From a virus (taxonomy: Duplodnaviria; Caudoviricetes): a stretch of 64,000 nt of DNA. Shown in pieces: positions 6,104 through 61,333 of the stretch. The notes under the pieces are model-generated. The model saw nothing but the letters and a program-made list of their open reading frames with translations. It was not told the origin of the DNA and ran no database searches. Positions within the stretch are counted from its first letter, which is position 1; the number at the start of each line of letters is the position of its first letter. The translations under genes were made by a program, and so were the position numbers. The stretch is taken from the IMG/VR virus record IMGVR_UViG_3300033066_001351, positions 1-64,000 of that record. One strand, written 5' to 3'.

Positions 6104-6586
6104 CTAGCGCGGTCCGCGGCAAGCGGCTTGTACGATATCGGCCAGGGCTTCCTCGGCGGCGTGAATTGCTTCGCCCAGCAATTCATTGGCGCAATCGTCC
6201 AGATAACTGTTGTTCCGCTTTCCGTTGGCCTGCGGATAGTTTGTCTCAATACCCCACAAACTGGCAGCGTGTTTCATGAATACGGTTTCGCCGTAGGAAG
6301 CGGAAATAACAATTCCGCAATAAAACCATTCATCGTTTTCCCACGCTTTCATAACACGCTTCGCGTGAGCCGTGTGGCGCGCAAGTGTGGACTTGCTTTT
6401 TGACCCGATATATCCCGCGGAATTTGGATCTTGGCTGGGCCAAAAGCCATCGTTGCGCTCATCCGGTGACGCCGAATCGCTGTCGTGTTCGACGGTTGCG
6501 GTATAGGTGATTCCGTTAACGGTAACGGAAACGGACTCGCCAGGAATCACGAACGAATCGAATTTTTCAGAGAATTTCGCGGCCAT
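6104..6586 (-). CDS. Hypothetical early protein
   Basis: 160 aa; shared AGGAGCAAAACCGATG leader. Confidence 0.8.
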   Translation of the reverse strand: MAAKFSEKFDSFVIPGESVSVTVNGITYTATVEHDSDSASPDERNDGFWPSQDPNSAGYIGSKSKSTLARHTAHAKRVMKAWENDEWFYCGIVISASYGETVFMKHAASLWGIETNYPQANGKRNNSYLDDCANELLGEAIHAAEEALADIVQAACRGPR

Positions 6587-6663
6587 CGGTTTTGCTCCTG
6601 TGTTTGCCTTGCTGTATCAGAGGATAGGGTTTTTCCTCTGATACCGCAAGAGAAACTTGCGTG

Positions 6664-6957
6664 TTAGACGGTGAAAATTTCGTCGGCTTGGCACCAGAAA
6701 TAGGTATCAGCATCAAGGCTTCCGCCGCCCCACTTGCCGCACCAGTCCATCTCCGCGGCCAACCGGCGGCAAGCCTCTTGATGTGGTGCGCTGCTTGCCA
6801 TGCCGATATTGCCTGTCGCATCCTGTAGCGCGTTGAATGTCCAGACGCGGCGAATGCCAGACGTAGTTACGGCGGCGATACGCGATGGCTGCGTATTTGT
6901 CGGGCCGAGATATTTGGTGCGGATACCTTGGTAGGTACGGATTGAGGGGTCGGCCAT
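6664..6957 (-). CDS. Conserved phage early protein (TKYLGPTN family)
   Basis: IRTKYLGPTNTQPSRI motif; shared leader. Confidence 0.8.
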   Translation of the reverse strand: MADPSIRTYQGIRTKYLGPTNTQPSRIAAVTTSGIRRVWTFNALQDATGNIGMASSAPHQEACRRLAAEMDWCGKWGGGSLDADTYFWCQADEIFTV

Positions 6958-6980
6958 CGGTTTTGCTCCTGTGTTTGTAT

Positions 6981-7013
6981 TGTCAACATACGCTGACAAT
7001 TCTTACCAGTCAA
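6981..7013 (-). promoter_or_regulatory. sigma70-like promoter with TGTCA-N8-TGACA operator
   Basis: - strand TTGACT-17-TATGTT; palindrome 6981-6998. Confidence 0.7.
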
Positions 7014-7022
7014 GTGTTTTTA

Positions 7023-7295
7023 TTAGTCTGGGCGGCCTTTATCGTGGCCCCCACCGCCATACGTGACGGGCAAGCCGCACGTCTTTTCGAGTGCGGTCAA
7101 AAGCCTGTCGTTGAAATTGTCATACAGCGCGCGGCCAAGTGATGTTCCGGCTTCTACCGCGTCGCAAACATCGTTTACGCGGCCGAGATACAACGAAAGC
7201 GCATAATGGTTATAGAATTTCTTTTTGGACTGGCGTGTATCAAACACGGTAACAGCGTGTGACAGTGTGCGGTGCAGTTTCACGGTATCAACCAT
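7023..7295 (-). CDS. Hypothetical early protein
   Basis: 90 aa; GAGGAG RBS. Confidence 0.75.
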   Translation of the reverse strand: MVDTVKLHRTLSHAVTVFDTRQSKKKFYNHYALSLYLGRVNDVCDAVEAGTSLGRALYDNFNDRLLTALEKTCGLPVTYGGGGHDKGRPD

Positions 7296-57078: not shown

Positions 57079-57330
57079 TTAGGTGGACCGCCCGTTCCGC
57101 ATCGTCTTGACGACCGGCGCCGTTTCAAGGGTAGCCCACCCATCGCCGTTCAGGGCCGACAGAATGGCTTCCATATTGGCCTTGGGGGTTTCATGCACGC
57201 GGATGATGGCATCGCCATTGCCGCCCTTGGACGGCGCCGTGAGATCGCGGGCGATGGACGTAGCGACGGTGAGCGACGACACGAACTTCGGCTTCTCGCC
57301 GTAGGACTGAACGCTGTAGACTGTCGGCAT
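57079..57330 (-). CDS. Hypothetical protein
   Basis: GGAG RBS; TTGACA upstream on the - strand. Confidence 0.7.
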   Translation of the reverse strand: MPTVYSVQSYGEKPKFVSSLTVATSIARDLTAPSKGGNGDAIIRVHETPKANMEAILSALNGDGWATLETAPVVKTMRNGRST

Positions 57331-57419
57331 ATTGATTGCTCCATGGATACGCGGTCAACCCAACAAGGTTGCCGGACGCATGTTTAGCCATAGTGGACGA
57401 TGAGTGTCAAGGGGTATTG

Positions 57420-58607
57420 TCAGCCAAACCTGGCTGAAATATCACACGACACGGCGATAGGCAGGCCCGCGGTCCAAGAGGGTTGCGACAACATGGCCTT
57501 TTCAAAGGTAGGAAGCAGTTTCTCGGCTTGGGACTTGGGGACTTCTGCTGTCACGGAGTCGTGAACGTGAAGGACTACTGGAATACCGGCGTCCTCCATG
57601 TTGCAAAGGGCCGTAGCGAGCATGTCGGCGGCGATTGCTTGGATTACATTTTCGTAATTTAATCCCCGCCAGGTTGTTCTCCTGAATATAGCTCTACCCT
57701 TGATTGCAATGGTTGTCAAGTCTAATTGATTTTTTGGACGCCCGTCGCTCCAGTAACCTTGCTCTAGCCGCGGTGCCCAGTAGCGTAGCAGCCTTCCGGA
57801 AGGAAGTCGGCAACACAGGACGTTTCCATCCAAACACCACGACACAAGATTTAACGGCTCCACGTAAAAAGTAGACCCTGGATAGGCCACGGCGTCGATA
57901 GCCGCTTGCATATTGTAATCCCAACATGCTACAAGGTATGTGTTGTCCTCGCGATAACTTTTCACTACGACTGCCGCATCTTCAAGAGATATGCGCAAAC
58001 CGTAGTTCATCGCAGCCGGAACAAAAGCATTCACGCCCCCAGCGAACGACAAAAAAAGCGTTTGGACCTTTCCGATCTGGCGCTGAGTTTTTGTAAGTTC
58101 TTCCGGTAGTTTTCCATAGTATTTAGCCGCCTGAACGCGGTAAATATCTTCGTTTCTTTTGAACACTTCTATCTTATCTGTTTGGTTTGCTAACCAGACA
58201 CTTGCGCGAGATTCGACGGAACTGTAATCTCCATTAAGTAATACTGATCCTTCCGGCGCCGTTAGTGTACGGCGCAGCATGCGGCCCGTGAAGGGAAGCA
58301 CTCCCTCCACGATTACGCGATCTTGTGCGTCTCGCCGTGTCATGGTGAAAAGCATTTCAGCCATATCACGGTCGCCGGAACGACCAACCTGTATAGCCGT
58401 ATTCAAGGCCAAGTCCTCGGCGGCCTTGAACCGTTCGGGTTCCTTCTTCGGACTGATGCCGGTAAGCAGTTCAACCTCGTCGGGGTTGGCGACGGCATCT
58501 CTCACAAAATTGTGAGGCTGCCACGCGGCGCCGGAATTGCTCACAATTTTGCCGTTTGCCATAAACCGATTGCGCGGCCCGGCATTCAGTATGTCATACG
58601 TTCTCAC
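57420..58607 (-). CDS. polA: DNA polymerase family A, C-terminal fragment (C-intein plus motifs A/B/C); start codon uncertain
   Basis: VRTYDILNAGPRNRFMANGKIVSN|SGAAWQPHNF; GDYSSVESR, RQIGK, ENVIQAIAAD, LHVHDS. Confidence 0.88.
   Translation of the reverse strand: MRTYDILNAGPRNRFMANGKIVSNSGAAWQPHNFVRDAVANPDEVELLTGISPKKEPERFKAAEDLALNTAIQVGRSGDRDMAEMLFTMTRRDAQDRVIVEGVLPFTGRMLRRTLTAPEGSVLLNGDYSSVESRASVWLANQTDKIEVFKRNEDIYRVQAAKYYGKLPEELTKTQRQIGKVQTLFLSFAGGVNAFVPAAMNYGLRISLEDAAVVVKSYREDNTYLVACWDYNMQAAIDAVAYPGSTFYVEPLNLVSWCLDGNVLCCRLPSGRLLRYWAPRLEQGYWSDGRPKNQLDLTTIAIKGRAIFRRTTWRGLNYENVIQAIAADMLATALCNMEDAGIPVVLHVHDSVTAEVPKSQAEKLLPTFEKAMLSQPSWTAGLPIAVSCDISARFG
58536..58607 (-). mobile_element. Split intein C-half (about 24 aa)
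   Basis: Block F TYDI, block G IVSN followed by Ser+1. Confidence 0.85.
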
Positions 58608-59484
58608 CGTCTTTAACGTTGGAATACTTTTTCCGGAGCCAGTCGCCTTTGGCGGCGCGGCGCTCAGGTGTCCAGTAGTTTTTGCGTCCTTCGGCAATGT
58701 TAGCGCTCCATTTTTCTTTATCAACGTTTTCTCGGGCTTTTTTGAGTTGTTCTGCAGCACGTTGTTTTTGCTCCTCTGTCCTATTAGCAAATTTTAACTT
58801 CAACGCTTTAGATATGTTTTCTTTTACTATTCTTTTTTCTTCTTCTGTACGGTTTTTCCACTGGTTTAGTGCTTTTTCTTTATGTAAAATAGTTGTTTTT
58901 TCTTTATCCGTTCTTTTGATGGCTTTTTCGTTTTTCTCTCTGTTAGCGATTATTTTAGCGGCTCTTTCAGGCTGGGCCATCAAATTGGCTAGGCGTGTTT
59001 GAGACGATTTCAGCGCCTGCGCCTTTACCTTTTCCGGGTTCTCTTGACGCCATTTTTCCGCGGCGGCCAACAATACGTCTATACGTAACATGTGACGACC
59101 GTTTTTGCACGCCAGACTGAGTTTAGCCTTAAACTCATCCAAGGCTACAGGATCTTGTTTTATTTTCGTCCAAAAATGTAATCCCGGACTATCTTTTTTA
59201 TTATCCCCTGATAGTATGTTATATCCTTTCTCTGGATTATTGGAACCATGCTCCACTATATACAGGTGTTCTCTAAGATGTGCTTCTTCTTTTGATAGTC
59301 CTTCTTCTAGGATTTCTATAGAAAACGCTTGCCGCCCGTGCTCTGCTATCGCCTTAGACAAAGGCCGCTCCAACGAACGCGTATGTGCTCCCCATCGTTC
59401 ATTCATTTTCATACTCGTCATGCCGACGTATATTTTTCCTTCGGGTCCGGTTATCCGGTATATTTTGTAACTTTTGGGGGACAT
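58594..59484 (-). CDS. GIY-YIG homing endonuclease between the split-intein halves
   Basis: KIYRIT...IYVGMT...ERW..H, AIAEHG, E..YI, GYN; K-rich tail; AT-rich; GAAGGT RBS. Confidence 0.9.
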   Translation of the reverse strand: MSPKSYKIYRITGPEGKIYVGMTSMKMNERWGAHTRSLERPLSKAIAEHGRQAFSIEILEEGLSKEEAHLREHLYIVEHGSNNPEKGYNILSGDNKKDSPGLHFWTKIKQDPVALDEFKAKLSLACKNGRHMLRIDVLLAAAEKWRQENPEKVKAQALKSSQTRLANLMAQPERAAKIIANREKNEKAIKRTDKEKTTILHKEKALNQWKNRTEEEKRIVKENISKALKLKFANRTEEQKQRAAEQLKKARENVDKEKWSANIAEGRKNYWTPERRAAKGDWLRKKYSNVKDGENV

Positions 59485-60791
59485 GTGGAACCTTCATAAA
59501 GGGGTAAAGATTTCTCAGCCGCTTCACTCAGCGGCATTTTTACAACCTCAGAAATATAGACTTTATGAGTTTGCGTTGCAACTACCCCGTCGTATTCCAT
59601 GACATCTTTTTCGCCGCTATATACAACTCCGTCGTGGCTGACCCACTCCACGCCATCCCACACCAGGTCATCCGCGGATACGTGTTCTATGCGCCGCTCT
59701 TCAACGACGCCTGTTGGCGTTTTAATAAGAATGAGAGACCCTTCCGCCAGACAAAAGCGAAATGTCTGCTGCGCTCCCCCCAACACAAGTGCCCCCCGTA
59801 GTCGTCCATCCGGATCGGCTGATTGGAGCATCTTCTTCAATTTCTTGACCGACGCCTTGGCAGCTTCCGCACGCCATTCCAACGCCTGGCGGCAATCATC
59901 GGGGATATCCGGTCGGGCTAGGATATCGGCGATGTCCGACTTCCGTAGCCGGTAGACGGCCTTTTTGCCGTCGTCCTCATCCTCGTCCTCTCCTTCTTCC
60001 TCATCCGCTGGCGAGGACCCCTTCAACGGCAATTCAACGCCGCGGGACATAAGCCACGTCTTCAACTGTTCGATAACCGACGTGGATCGAACGGCGCCGT
60101 TGGTAAGGGCTTTCATCGCGGCGTCCAGACGCGCCGTCTCTTCCTCGGCGATCTTGCGCAAGCCCTTGACGAGTTCAACGTCCATCAGGACGCCGCGATC
60201 ATTGATGCGGCGATCTATGTCCCGCATCCGATTCCACGGCGGCATCGTGAACCATGGTGGAAGACGCTTGAGCGTTTCTTCTTCCATCACAACATCTTGA
60301 ACGCAACGGTTACGCAACCATTTCAGATCGACGCCTCGGATTACCGGCGTCTGTTTCTTGTTGGTGATGCGGCGAAGTGTGTTGTTGTCCTTCAGGTCGC
60401 CGACATACGGCACACCGACGGCCTTGGCGCATCCATCCAGCGACCGCGGCAGGTTAGCAGCGGCAGCCAACTGCATGGAGTCTTGCCACTGGTGACGCTG
60501 GATAGGCGGGAAACCGTGGCGCTTTACGAGAATTTCGTCCCACGCGATAGCGTCAAATCCGAGGACATTCCAGCCCGACAGCGCGCCGCCGTTGATGACG
60601 TGTTCTACCAGGTCCTGCGGCGGCGCATCACCCATCACCCACACACTTGGATCGCTCGGGTTGCCGATCTCATGATAGGCAAACAGGATCACATCCGTGT
60701 CAGGATCCCGTAGGTACGCTTTGGACCCCACCGCTTTCAGATTGGCTATAGCGTGGGTCTCTACGTCAAGGGAGTAGACGGTTTCCGTCAT
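59451..60791 (-). CDS. polA: DNA polymerase family A (APSE-like), N-terminal fragment (3'-5' exonuclease plus N-intein)
   Basis: SLDVET, GWN..FD, LPRSL, QDV, INDRGV..D, DGRLRG...GAQQTFRF|C. Confidence 0.9.
   Translation of the reverse strand: MTETVYSLDVETHAIANLKAVGSKAYLRDPDTDVILFAYHEIGNPSDPSVWVMGDAPPQDLVEHVINGGALSGWNVLGFDAIAWDEILVKRHGFPPIQRHQWQDSMQLAAAANLPRSLDGCAKAVGVPYVGDLKDNNTLRRITNKKQTPVIRGVDLKWLRNRCVQDVVMEEETLKRLPPWFTMPPWNRMRDIDRRINDRGVLMDVELVKGLRKIAEEETARLDAAMKALTNGAVRSTSVIEQLKTWLMSRGVELPLKGSSPADEEEGEDEDEDDGKKAVYRLRKSDIADILARPDIPDDCRQALEWRAEAAKASVKKLKKMLQSADPDGRLRGALVLGGAQQTFRFCLAEGSLILIKTPTGVVEERRIEHVSADDLVWDGVEWVSHDGVVYSGEKDVMEYDGVVATQTHKVYISEVVKMPLSEAAEKSLPLYEGSTCPPKVTKYTG
59454..59753 (-). 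mobile_element. Split intein N-half (100 aa)
   Basis: CLAEGSLILI block A, DLVWDG.EWVSH.G, ATQTH block B, then stop. Confidence 0.88.
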
Positions 60792-61333
60792 AGCAAGCCC
60801 CTCCGCTTCATGGCGCCTTCGTATATTCTCAGCATGTCGGGTTCTACACGGGGTATTATAGCCGGCGGTACTTTTAACGGAGGTAAACGTATTGCGGTTA
60901 GGCCGCCTTCTGTTTCTCCGTCAGGTTCAAAACCTACTTTCATATAAGTCCAGCCCCACACAGGCTTTCCTTTTACCATCGTCGGCTTTACTTTTTCCCG
61001 ATTGACAAAAGTTATCATGCCTAGATCGGGAGGTTCGCCCATCATGTGTCGGGTGATGCCTACAGCTTCTGCTATCAATTCAGAAGCCTTTCCTACACCC
61101 TCATTGCGGAAGGCCGAACACACCCATGCACCGCCCCACCTATGTCGCACGTATTCAGCGAACGGCCACGACGTGACCCACAGCGCCTCGCAATCGTTTT
61201 CCTTTGCATATAGGACCATACAACGCCCCGGCGGCACAAAGCCCGGCGTTCCTATTTTTTGTCTGTTATAGTGGCGGTCCGCAACTAGGCGGCTACGAAC
61301 ATCTTGCCGATGTGAGAGGCGCCAAACCCCCAT
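60788..61333 (-). CDS. Mom-like/GNAT-fold putative DNA-modifying protein
   Basis: ADRHYNRQK, VPPGR, CSAFRNEG..ASELI, MITFV, G.TYMKVGF...G.T. Confidence 0.55.
   Translation of the reverse strand: MGVWRLSHRQDVRSRLVADRHYNRQKIGTPGFVPPGRCMVLYAKENDCEALWVTSWPFAEYVRHRWGGAWVCSAFRNEGVGKASELIAEAVGITRHMMGEPPDLGMITFVNREKVKPTMVKGKPVWGWTYMKVGFEPDGETEGGLTAIRLPPLKVPPAIIPRVEPDMLRIYEGAMKRRGLL

Follow-up and report, generated by a model that had tools for sequence, protein, structure and literature searches.

A phage family A DNA polymerase gene fractured around a GIY-YIG endonuclease gene and probably rebuilt by split-intein protein trans-splicing

How can a phage obtain a complete DNA polymerase from a gene that is broken in two, with a gene for a putative homing endonuclease lying between the pieces? 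This question is raised by the polA locus in the stretch of DNA analyzed here (hereafter the window), which comprises positions 1 to 64,000 of the IMG/VR virus record IMGVR_UViG_3300033066_001351 (Duplodnaviria; Caudoviricetes). The whole record, of an uncultured phage, is 94,567 bp long, has direct terminal repeats and received a CheckV estimate of 100%, that is, it represents a complete genome, and the fractured gene is the sole polA (family A polymerase gene) of this genome. The front half of the gene (polA-N), the GIY-YIG gene and the rear half (polA-C) are all encoded on the minus strand (table 1). The answer that we consider very probable is protein trans-splicing: polA-N ends in the N-terminal part of a split intein (IntN), polA-C begins with its C-terminal part (IntC), and the two parts together would join the flanking polymerase segments (the N- and C-exteins) into one chain. 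The same mechanism had been proposed in an earlier note on the window (hereafter the original prediction), and it remains the best explanation that we infer from the extein junction, the conserved catalytic residues and the wide spread of the gene layout.

Junction, intein halves and endonuclease

The inserted element occupies exactly positions 58536–59753: the C-intein has its last base at 58536, and the N-intein its first base at 59753. The N-extein ends with ..QQTFRF directly before the first intein residue, Cys1 (codon 59753–59751), and polA-C reads ..YDILNAGPRNRFMANGKIVSN, followed by SGAAWQPHNF and the remaining polymerase; the terminal Asn codon of the intein is at 58538–58536, and the first residue of the C-extein (Ser+1) begins at 58535. 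We compared this region with metagenomic loci (designated L0xx) and metagenomic proteins (P0xxx). Two uninterrupted polymerases, P0003 (718 amino acids, aa) and P0004, read ..GGAQQTFRW-SGAAWQPHNFVRD in this region (..TFRW/TMRW↓SGAAWQPHNFVRD, the arrow marking the insertion site here and below), and no residue is gained or lost at the junction. The C-extein aligns without gaps to residues 348–718 of P0003 (71% identity), and the N-extein aligns, also without gaps, to the part of P0003 that precedes residue 348. PolA-N is 64–67% identical to metagenomic polymerases, and P0003 and P0004 share 66–67% identity with it in the N-extein. The exact junction that had been predicted, ..TFR(W/F)↓SGAAWQPHNF, is thus borne out by gap-free uninterrupted homologs. 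It lies within the conserved T-G-R-(W/F)↓S-G..Q..N motif of family A polymerases, and an intein-less allele is known as DNA from locus L022, which encodes P0004. In L022 (4860–5160) the open reading frame (ORF) of P0004 is itself frameshifted approximately 80 codons before its end (..TLWRGL, then a stop), with the remainder intact in the +1 frame; the frameshift may be real or may stem from an error of assembly.

Both polymerase halves appear complete. PolA-N has the exonuclease DxE motif at residue 9, the polymerase motifs of the C-extein (DYSSVE, RQIGK..FAGG, and VHDS) are intact, and PolA-C is recognized by Pfam PF00476 (E-value 1.3e-18). ORFs and Pfam matches agree with the layout described in the original prediction, a split intein around a free-standing GIY-YIG gene in a family A polymerase. 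Across the inserted element the polA frame contains 21 stop codons, which rules out a single indel, and two contigs, with three member sequences between them, are on record as encoding an identical PolA-N protein, so that an indel artefact can be rejected. The endonuclease gene has a G+C content of 42.6%, compared with 58.2% in the N-extein and 56.8% in the whole window, and both the endonuclease and the N-intein are present as single copies in the phage genome. Considering that this genome is complete and has no other family A polymerase, the phage needs the fractured gene, and its polymerase most likely has to be joined at the protein level.

Table 1. Coordinates of the fractured polA locus in the window
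Feature	Position	Strand	Description
polA-N	59451..60791	-	446-aa ORF: 346-aa N-extein, N-intein and stop
N-extein	59754-60791	-	346 aa; 3'-5' exonuclease domain and front of polymerase domain
IntN (N-intein)	59454..59753	-	100 codons; Cys1 and block B motif; net charge -8
GIY-YIG homing-endonuclease gene	58594..59484	-	Free-standing, 296 aa, PF01541
IntC (C-intein)	58536..58607	-	24 aa from GTG 58607: MRTYDILNAGPRNRFMANGKIVSN; net charge +3
polA-C	57420..58607	-	IntC and 371-aa C-extein; PF00476
C-extein	57423-58535	-	371 aa; carries polymerase motifs A, B, C

To analyze the N-intein, we searched 1.84 billion representative proteins with its 90-aa sequence, which gave 1,589 matches at E ≤ 0.001, and counted residue conservation in 100 retrieved proteins with an N-intein at this site. 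Cys1 (block A) was Cys in 100 of these 100 homologs. In the block B motif, T60-Q-T-H63, the Thr was kept in 96% and the His in 100% of them. At least 74 protein clusters at 50% identity (74 of the set of 100) terminate no more than 125 residues after Cys1 and represent split N-halves. The original prediction of a 100-aa N-intein is right as far as the number of codons before the stop (59453–59451) is concerned, but the conserved part comprises only about 88–90 aa; the final 10–12 residues are an alternative-frame reading of the endonuclease start. Across the family, IntN spans 88–105 codons to the stop and the whole intein 112–131 aa. The two halves are oppositely charged across loci, with net charges from −5 to −12 for IntN and from +2 to +4 for IntC.

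The C-intein is unusually short. An ATG (L004, L006, L016, and L021) or GTG (window, L013, and L014) immediately precedes the residues R-T-Y-D-I, and in L001 and L002 the ATG lies two codons earlier. In-frame stops are found just upstream of this start in L001, L004, L006, L016, and L021, and where the upstream frame stays open, its translation is unconserved. These conserved starts, which across loci mostly follow a Shine-Dalgarno sequence, and the upstream stops in relatives indicate that IntC is 24 aa long here and 24–26 aa in the family. They put on a firm footing the earlier suggestion of a C-intein of about 24 aa ending in Ser-Asn. Two longer versions, starting at TTG 58697 (54 aa) or GTG 58760 (75 aa), both of which have good Shine-Dalgarno sequences, were considered and rejected, as the sequence upstream of the conserved start is unconserved and closed by the stops in the same five loci. 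In all ten loci read, block F contains the expected Asp (YDIL), with its usual His replaced (PRNRF), and block G contains the terminal Asn and Ser+1 (..VSN↓SG).

The fold was assessed on a contiguous relative rather than on the split pair. P0094, encoded by L005, has an uninterrupted 127-aa intein at the same site, whose end, ..YDILNAGPRNRFTANGRVVSN↓SG, is nearly the same as that of the split form. An AlphaFold2 model of this intein with short flanks, built from 22 alignment rows, had a mean predicted local distance difference test score (pLDDT) of 88.2 and a predicted template modeling score (pTM) of 0.81. The best Foldseek matches of the model were the Ssp DnaB mini-intein and the gp41-1 and Npu DnaE inteins (probability 1.0, template modeling (TM) scores 0.6–0.69). 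Its last ~24 residues form three strands, and a 13-residue coil joins them to the N-terminal part at the position where the split forms break. Judged by this modeled fold, the element is an intein, although the Pfam and NCBIfam sequence models miss it. Sequence searches of the Protein Data Bank (PDB) with IntN and IntC detected no match to any chain, and a PDB profile search with the family alignment, which included whole proteins, returned only Taq/Klenow polymerases.

The protein encoded between the halves matches Pfam PF01541 above the cut-off (E-value 6.6e-7). It also matches TIGR01453 (I-TevI-type) over residues 8–256 with an E-value of 1.7e-11, the score of 44.6 bits being below the 56-bit cut-off. 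The catalytic residues Y9, Y19, G21, R30, E72, and N89 are invariant in four homologs; C-terminal motifs are conserved among homologs as well, in a region that no Pfam domain matches. A tblastn search of GenBank phages with this protein yielded matches to the catalytic domain only. The gene, which lies in the −1 frame, shares 34 nucleotides (nt) with the end of polA-N and 14 nt with the start of polA-C. It has its own ATG, whose GAAGG Shine-Dalgarno sequence lies in IntN codons. Also within IntN codons, 33 nt upstream of this ATG, is a 6-bp G+C-rich hairpin (GCCGCT..AGCGGC, 59518–59535); hairpins ahead of endonuclease genes in fractured loci were noted by Dassa et al. (PMC2677866). Near the other end of the gene, at 58620–58630, the sequence CGG-AAA-AAG stands ahead of an open stretch of the polA frame. 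That the two polA halves share a frame, with the endonuclease at −1, is true of this locus as had been remarked, but it is of little significance: halves differ in frame among relatives, where the endonuclease is at −1 or +1, and the shared frame is a coincidence. A promoter and terminator scan gave nothing above the shuffled background.

The probable course of events would be as follows. A mobile cassette, a class-1 intein split by a free-standing GIY-YIG gene, would have entered the polA codons of the T-G-R-(W/F)↓S-G..Q..N motif. One transcript would probably carry three overlapping ORFs (N-extein–IntN, endonuclease, and IntC–C-extein), for which coupled translation from a single mRNA is plausible. 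The acidic ~90-aa IntN and the basic 24-aa IntC would associate into a Hint fold. Formation of a thioester at Cys1, attack by Ser+1, cyclization of the terminal Asn and an O-to-N shift would generate the peptide bond, and the resulting polymerase would be 717 aa long, with ..QQTFRF-SGAAWQ.. at the junction. The endonuclease would be expected to cut intein-less polA during co-infection, with the result that the whole cassette is copied in.

Relatives at the same insertion site

The same arrangement of three genes, including an endonuclease homolog of 287–308 aa, was also found in L001, L002/L003, L004, L013, L014/L015, L016, and L021, which makes at least nine metagenomic loci besides the window. 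The closest relative is L001: its exteins are 67–72% identical to those of the window, and its endonuclease shows lower conservation (43%). When distant loci (L002 and L004) were compared part by part, the exteins were only 30–37% identical, whereas identity reached 51–61% in IntN and 69–83% in IntC. Such better conservation of intein than of extein fits either constraint or some horizontal movement. Considering that the catalytic residues are conserved across such diverged exteins, selection appears to act on the splicing chemistry and not on association alone. A megablast search with 25 kb of the window against GenBank phages detected no relative.

Several other forms occupy the same site. 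Besides P0094, contiguous mini-inteins of 123–136 aa are present in P0254, P0224, P0223, P0138, and P0121. Large contiguous forms of approximately 405 aa are found in P0172 and P0125, in which Pfam detects the polymerase domain only and no domain in the insert; these inserts could represent chance read-through of an out-of-frame gene. In P0132 (GIY-YIG at residues 426–504), P0148 (L021, 1111–3273), P0202, P0212, P0204, and P0133, the N-extein, IntN, and GIY-YIG domain form one ORF, and IntC is still encoded separately downstream. An internal GTG in L021 could still start the endonuclease alone. P0190 is a single case of an IntN-HNH-AP2 fusion. In L006 the polA halves are only ~160 bp apart and no endonuclease gene lies between them, which indicates that the split can outlast the endonuclease. 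The place of the GIY-YIG gene in L006 (5424–5615) is taken by a gene of 63 aa, which is preceded by a strong Shine-Dalgarno sequence and has a recorded Pfam match to YozE_SAM_like.

Thus, five forms can be recognized at one site: mini contiguous, large contiguous, split with a free endonuclease in either alternative frame, split with an IntN-fused endonuclease, and split without endonuclease. The gene-breaking model that Dassa et al. put forward could be tested on this natural series. The neighborhood is shared as well. A syntenic replication module, composed of genes for a DUF2800/PD-(D/E)XK nuclease, an Enc34-type single-stranded DNA-binding protein, PolA, an SNF2 helicase, and a primase, was observed in the flanks of L001, L002, L004, L005, L021, and L022, which belong to very diverged phages.

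Weighing trans-splicing against other explanations

Several points weigh against trans-splicing. No Pfam or NCBIfam intein model matches either half or the contiguous relative (E-values up to 1–10). GTG 58607 is preceded by a weak Shine-Dalgarno sequence (AAAGACG), and the polA frame stays open for 61 more codons upstream of this GTG, so the window alone would allow a longer IntC. Finally, the penultimate residue of block G is Ser rather than His, and the block F His is absent. These two histidines usually assist Asn cyclization (for the definition of the block F Asp/His, see the review PMC7765530). The Ser-Asn end had been regarded as a warning sign in the original prediction; that concern loses its force, as the penultimate residue is Ser in every member read at this site, contiguous members included. 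Active inteins without a penultimate His are known, and its absence does not exclude a protein from the inteins; Npu DnaE also ends with Ser-Asn.

The absence of both helper histidines makes a non-covalent clamp the main alternative. In such a clamp the intein halves would only hold the polymerase pieces together, with no peptide bond formed, as in the intein-less split NrdA and split gp43; functional intein-less fractured genes are cited by Dassa et al. (PMC2677866). However, a clamp requires none of Cys1, the TxxH motif, the terminal Asn, and Ser+1, all of which are invariant or nearly so across exteins that are only 30% identical. Moreover, P0094, P0254, and P0224, contiguous members that share the ..VSN↓SG end, can yield a working polymerase only by splicing. 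We therefore regard a clamp without ligation as unlikely.

Another explanation is recoding, by which a −1 slip on the heptamer C-CCA-AAA (59477–59471) would fuse IntN to the endonuclease and a +1 shift near the endonuclease end would complete a contiguous, cis-splicing intein that includes a GIY-YIG domain. The −1 frame of this heptamer is indeed the endonuclease frame, IntN and GIY-YIG share one ORF in some relatives (P0132, P0148/L021, P0202, P0212, and P0204), and the polA frame is open over the 61 codons before IntC. The heptamer is, however, absent from L001, L002, L004, L013, L014, and L016, and unconserved in seven relatives overall; the endonuclease is in the +1 frame in L002 and L004 and in the −1 frame in the other loci, and the frame of IntC varies too. 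In addition, the endonuclease has a start codon and a Shine-Dalgarno sequence of its own, and the open stretch upstream of IntC is unconserved, being interrupted by stops in five relatives. The −1/+1 frameshift models were rejected because they are not conserved across relatives, and we consider recoding very improbable.

It is still harder to view the locus as a decaying pseudogene, in which insertion of the endonuclease would have killed both intein and polymerase and the phage would use the host polymerase. The insert is low in G+C and looks foreign, as might be expected in that case, but each half is an intact ORF of full length, no exonuclease or polymerase motif is missing, the catalytic residues of the endonuclease are intact, and dozens of diverged lineages retain this layout. 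Least credible of all are a group I intron removed from the RNA, which the resemblance of the endonuclease to group I intron endonucleases (TIGR01453) might suggest, and assembly errors as the source of the stops: an Rfam scan of 57300–60900 found no intron or other RNA family even at E-values up to 1, the endonuclease ORF fills the gap and overlaps both flanking genes, with no space left for a ribozyme core, IntC begins at a conserved start codon of its own, and an assembly error is contradicted by 21 stops, a clear shift in composition and a layout common to independent assemblies.

Comparison with known fractured genes and inteins

Trans-splicing around a free-standing endonuclease gene would not be a new arrangement. 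Fractured genes of this kind, GIY-YIG genes included, were described by Dassa et al. 2009 (PMC2677866) in gp41, IMPDH, DnaE, NrdA, NrdJ, ligase, and terminase hosts (the loci named are gp41-1, gp41-8, NrdJ-1, NrdA-2, IMPDH-1, DnaE, ligase, and terminase). As in those loci, two adjacent host ORFs on the same strand each carry an intein half, with a free-standing GIY-YIG (or Vsr-like) ORF between them. Overlapping coding frames, opposite charges of the halves and an origin among phage-type replication proteins from metagenomes are further common properties. The novelty was overrated in the original prediction, and what is new here is limited to the host enzyme and the very short C-intein: family A DNA polymerase is not listed as a host in PMC2677866. 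The PolA site further differs from the loci of Dassa et al. in having contiguous mini-inteins, in-frame IntN-endonuclease fusions and an endonuclease-less split form. A literature search found no description of a PolA split intein; subscription journals were poorly covered, so this is weak evidence of novelty.

Among individual inteins, gp41-1 (88 + 37 aa; PDB 6qaz) is similar in the size of its N-fragment (88 aa in L016), in Cys1 and in Ser+1, and it ranked second among the Foldseek matches of the P0094 model. On the other hand, the two have no detectable sequence similarity, the PolA IntC lacks ~13 residues before the YDI strand and has a penultimate Ser, and its length is 24–26 aa compared with 37 aa in gp41-1 (bioRxiv 10.1101/546465). 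Cyanobacterial DnaE inteins (Npu/Ssp) are likewise split at the endonuclease-insertion position into an acidic IntN of ~100 aa and a basic IntC, and they match structurally with TM scores of 0.66–0.69. Their IntC is 35–36 aa long. Unlike the PolA halves, the DnaE halves are encoded at widely separated positions, no endonuclease gene lies between them, and their host protein is the Pol III alpha subunit.

Homologous sequences were also found in contiguous inteins of other phage polymerases. The intein of APSE-1 P45, which had been thought to sit in the same region, is homologous to IntN (47.7% identity over 65 aa) but is located at TYGGKS↓C..HN↓CENICQA, ~290 residues downstream; it is contiguous, and its annotation includes an internal HNH endonuclease. 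The N-regions of the inteins of APSE-1, a Streptococcus Javan prophage, a Ruminococcus phage, and Sodalis phage SO-1 are homologous (41–48% identity), and all of their hosts are phage family A polymerases. The inteins of Javan255 and the Ruminococcus phage, together with a second intein in L002, are contiguous and lie at ..ELA↓C..HN↓CGYGG; that of SO-1, also contiguous, lies at RQIGKA↓C..HN↓CELG. All four belong to a third region, close to the ..GK..ELA↓..↓CGYGG motif. The APSE-1, Javan, Ruminococcus phage, and SO-1 inteins end with His-Asn↓Cys, in contrast to Ser-Asn↓Ser at the split site. Related inteins are thus present at three or more sites of phage family A polymerases, and only the site studied here has the Ser-Asn↓Ser end and split forms.

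A broader view, which we offer tentatively and with slightly less than even confidence, is that the PolA 'TGRW↓SG' inteins may constitute a widespread and so far undescribed family of natural split inteins. Their 24-aa C-fragment might be the smallest known (the whole intein being 112–124 aa compared with 125 aa for gp41-1) and would be active in trans with neither the penultimate nor the block F His. Under the same view, one site would preserve every stage between contiguous, endonuclease-bearing and split inteins, including IntN–GIY-YIG fusions. Notable about the locus are its 24-aa C-intein, the large family to which it belongs and the variety of architectures found at this single site. Standard intein models do not detect the family, so polymerases of this kind are annotated as fragments or hypothetical proteins. 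If trans-splicing does occur, an essential replication enzyme of these phages would depend on post-translational ligation. A natural 24-residue IntC is also within reach of routine peptide synthesis, and its value would depend on splicing rate and extein tolerance; shorter C-fragments have been a stated aim of engineering (PMC2664965).

The second intein of L002 mentioned above (6200–7140) interrupts the same polymerase as the split intein of that locus, at ..ELA↓C..HN↓CGFGG. A 248-aa ORF (6333–7079) lies inside it in another frame. The intein's own frame is open there, and its translation is Arg-rich and looks non-coding; the 248-aa ORF could be another out-of-frame endonuclease.

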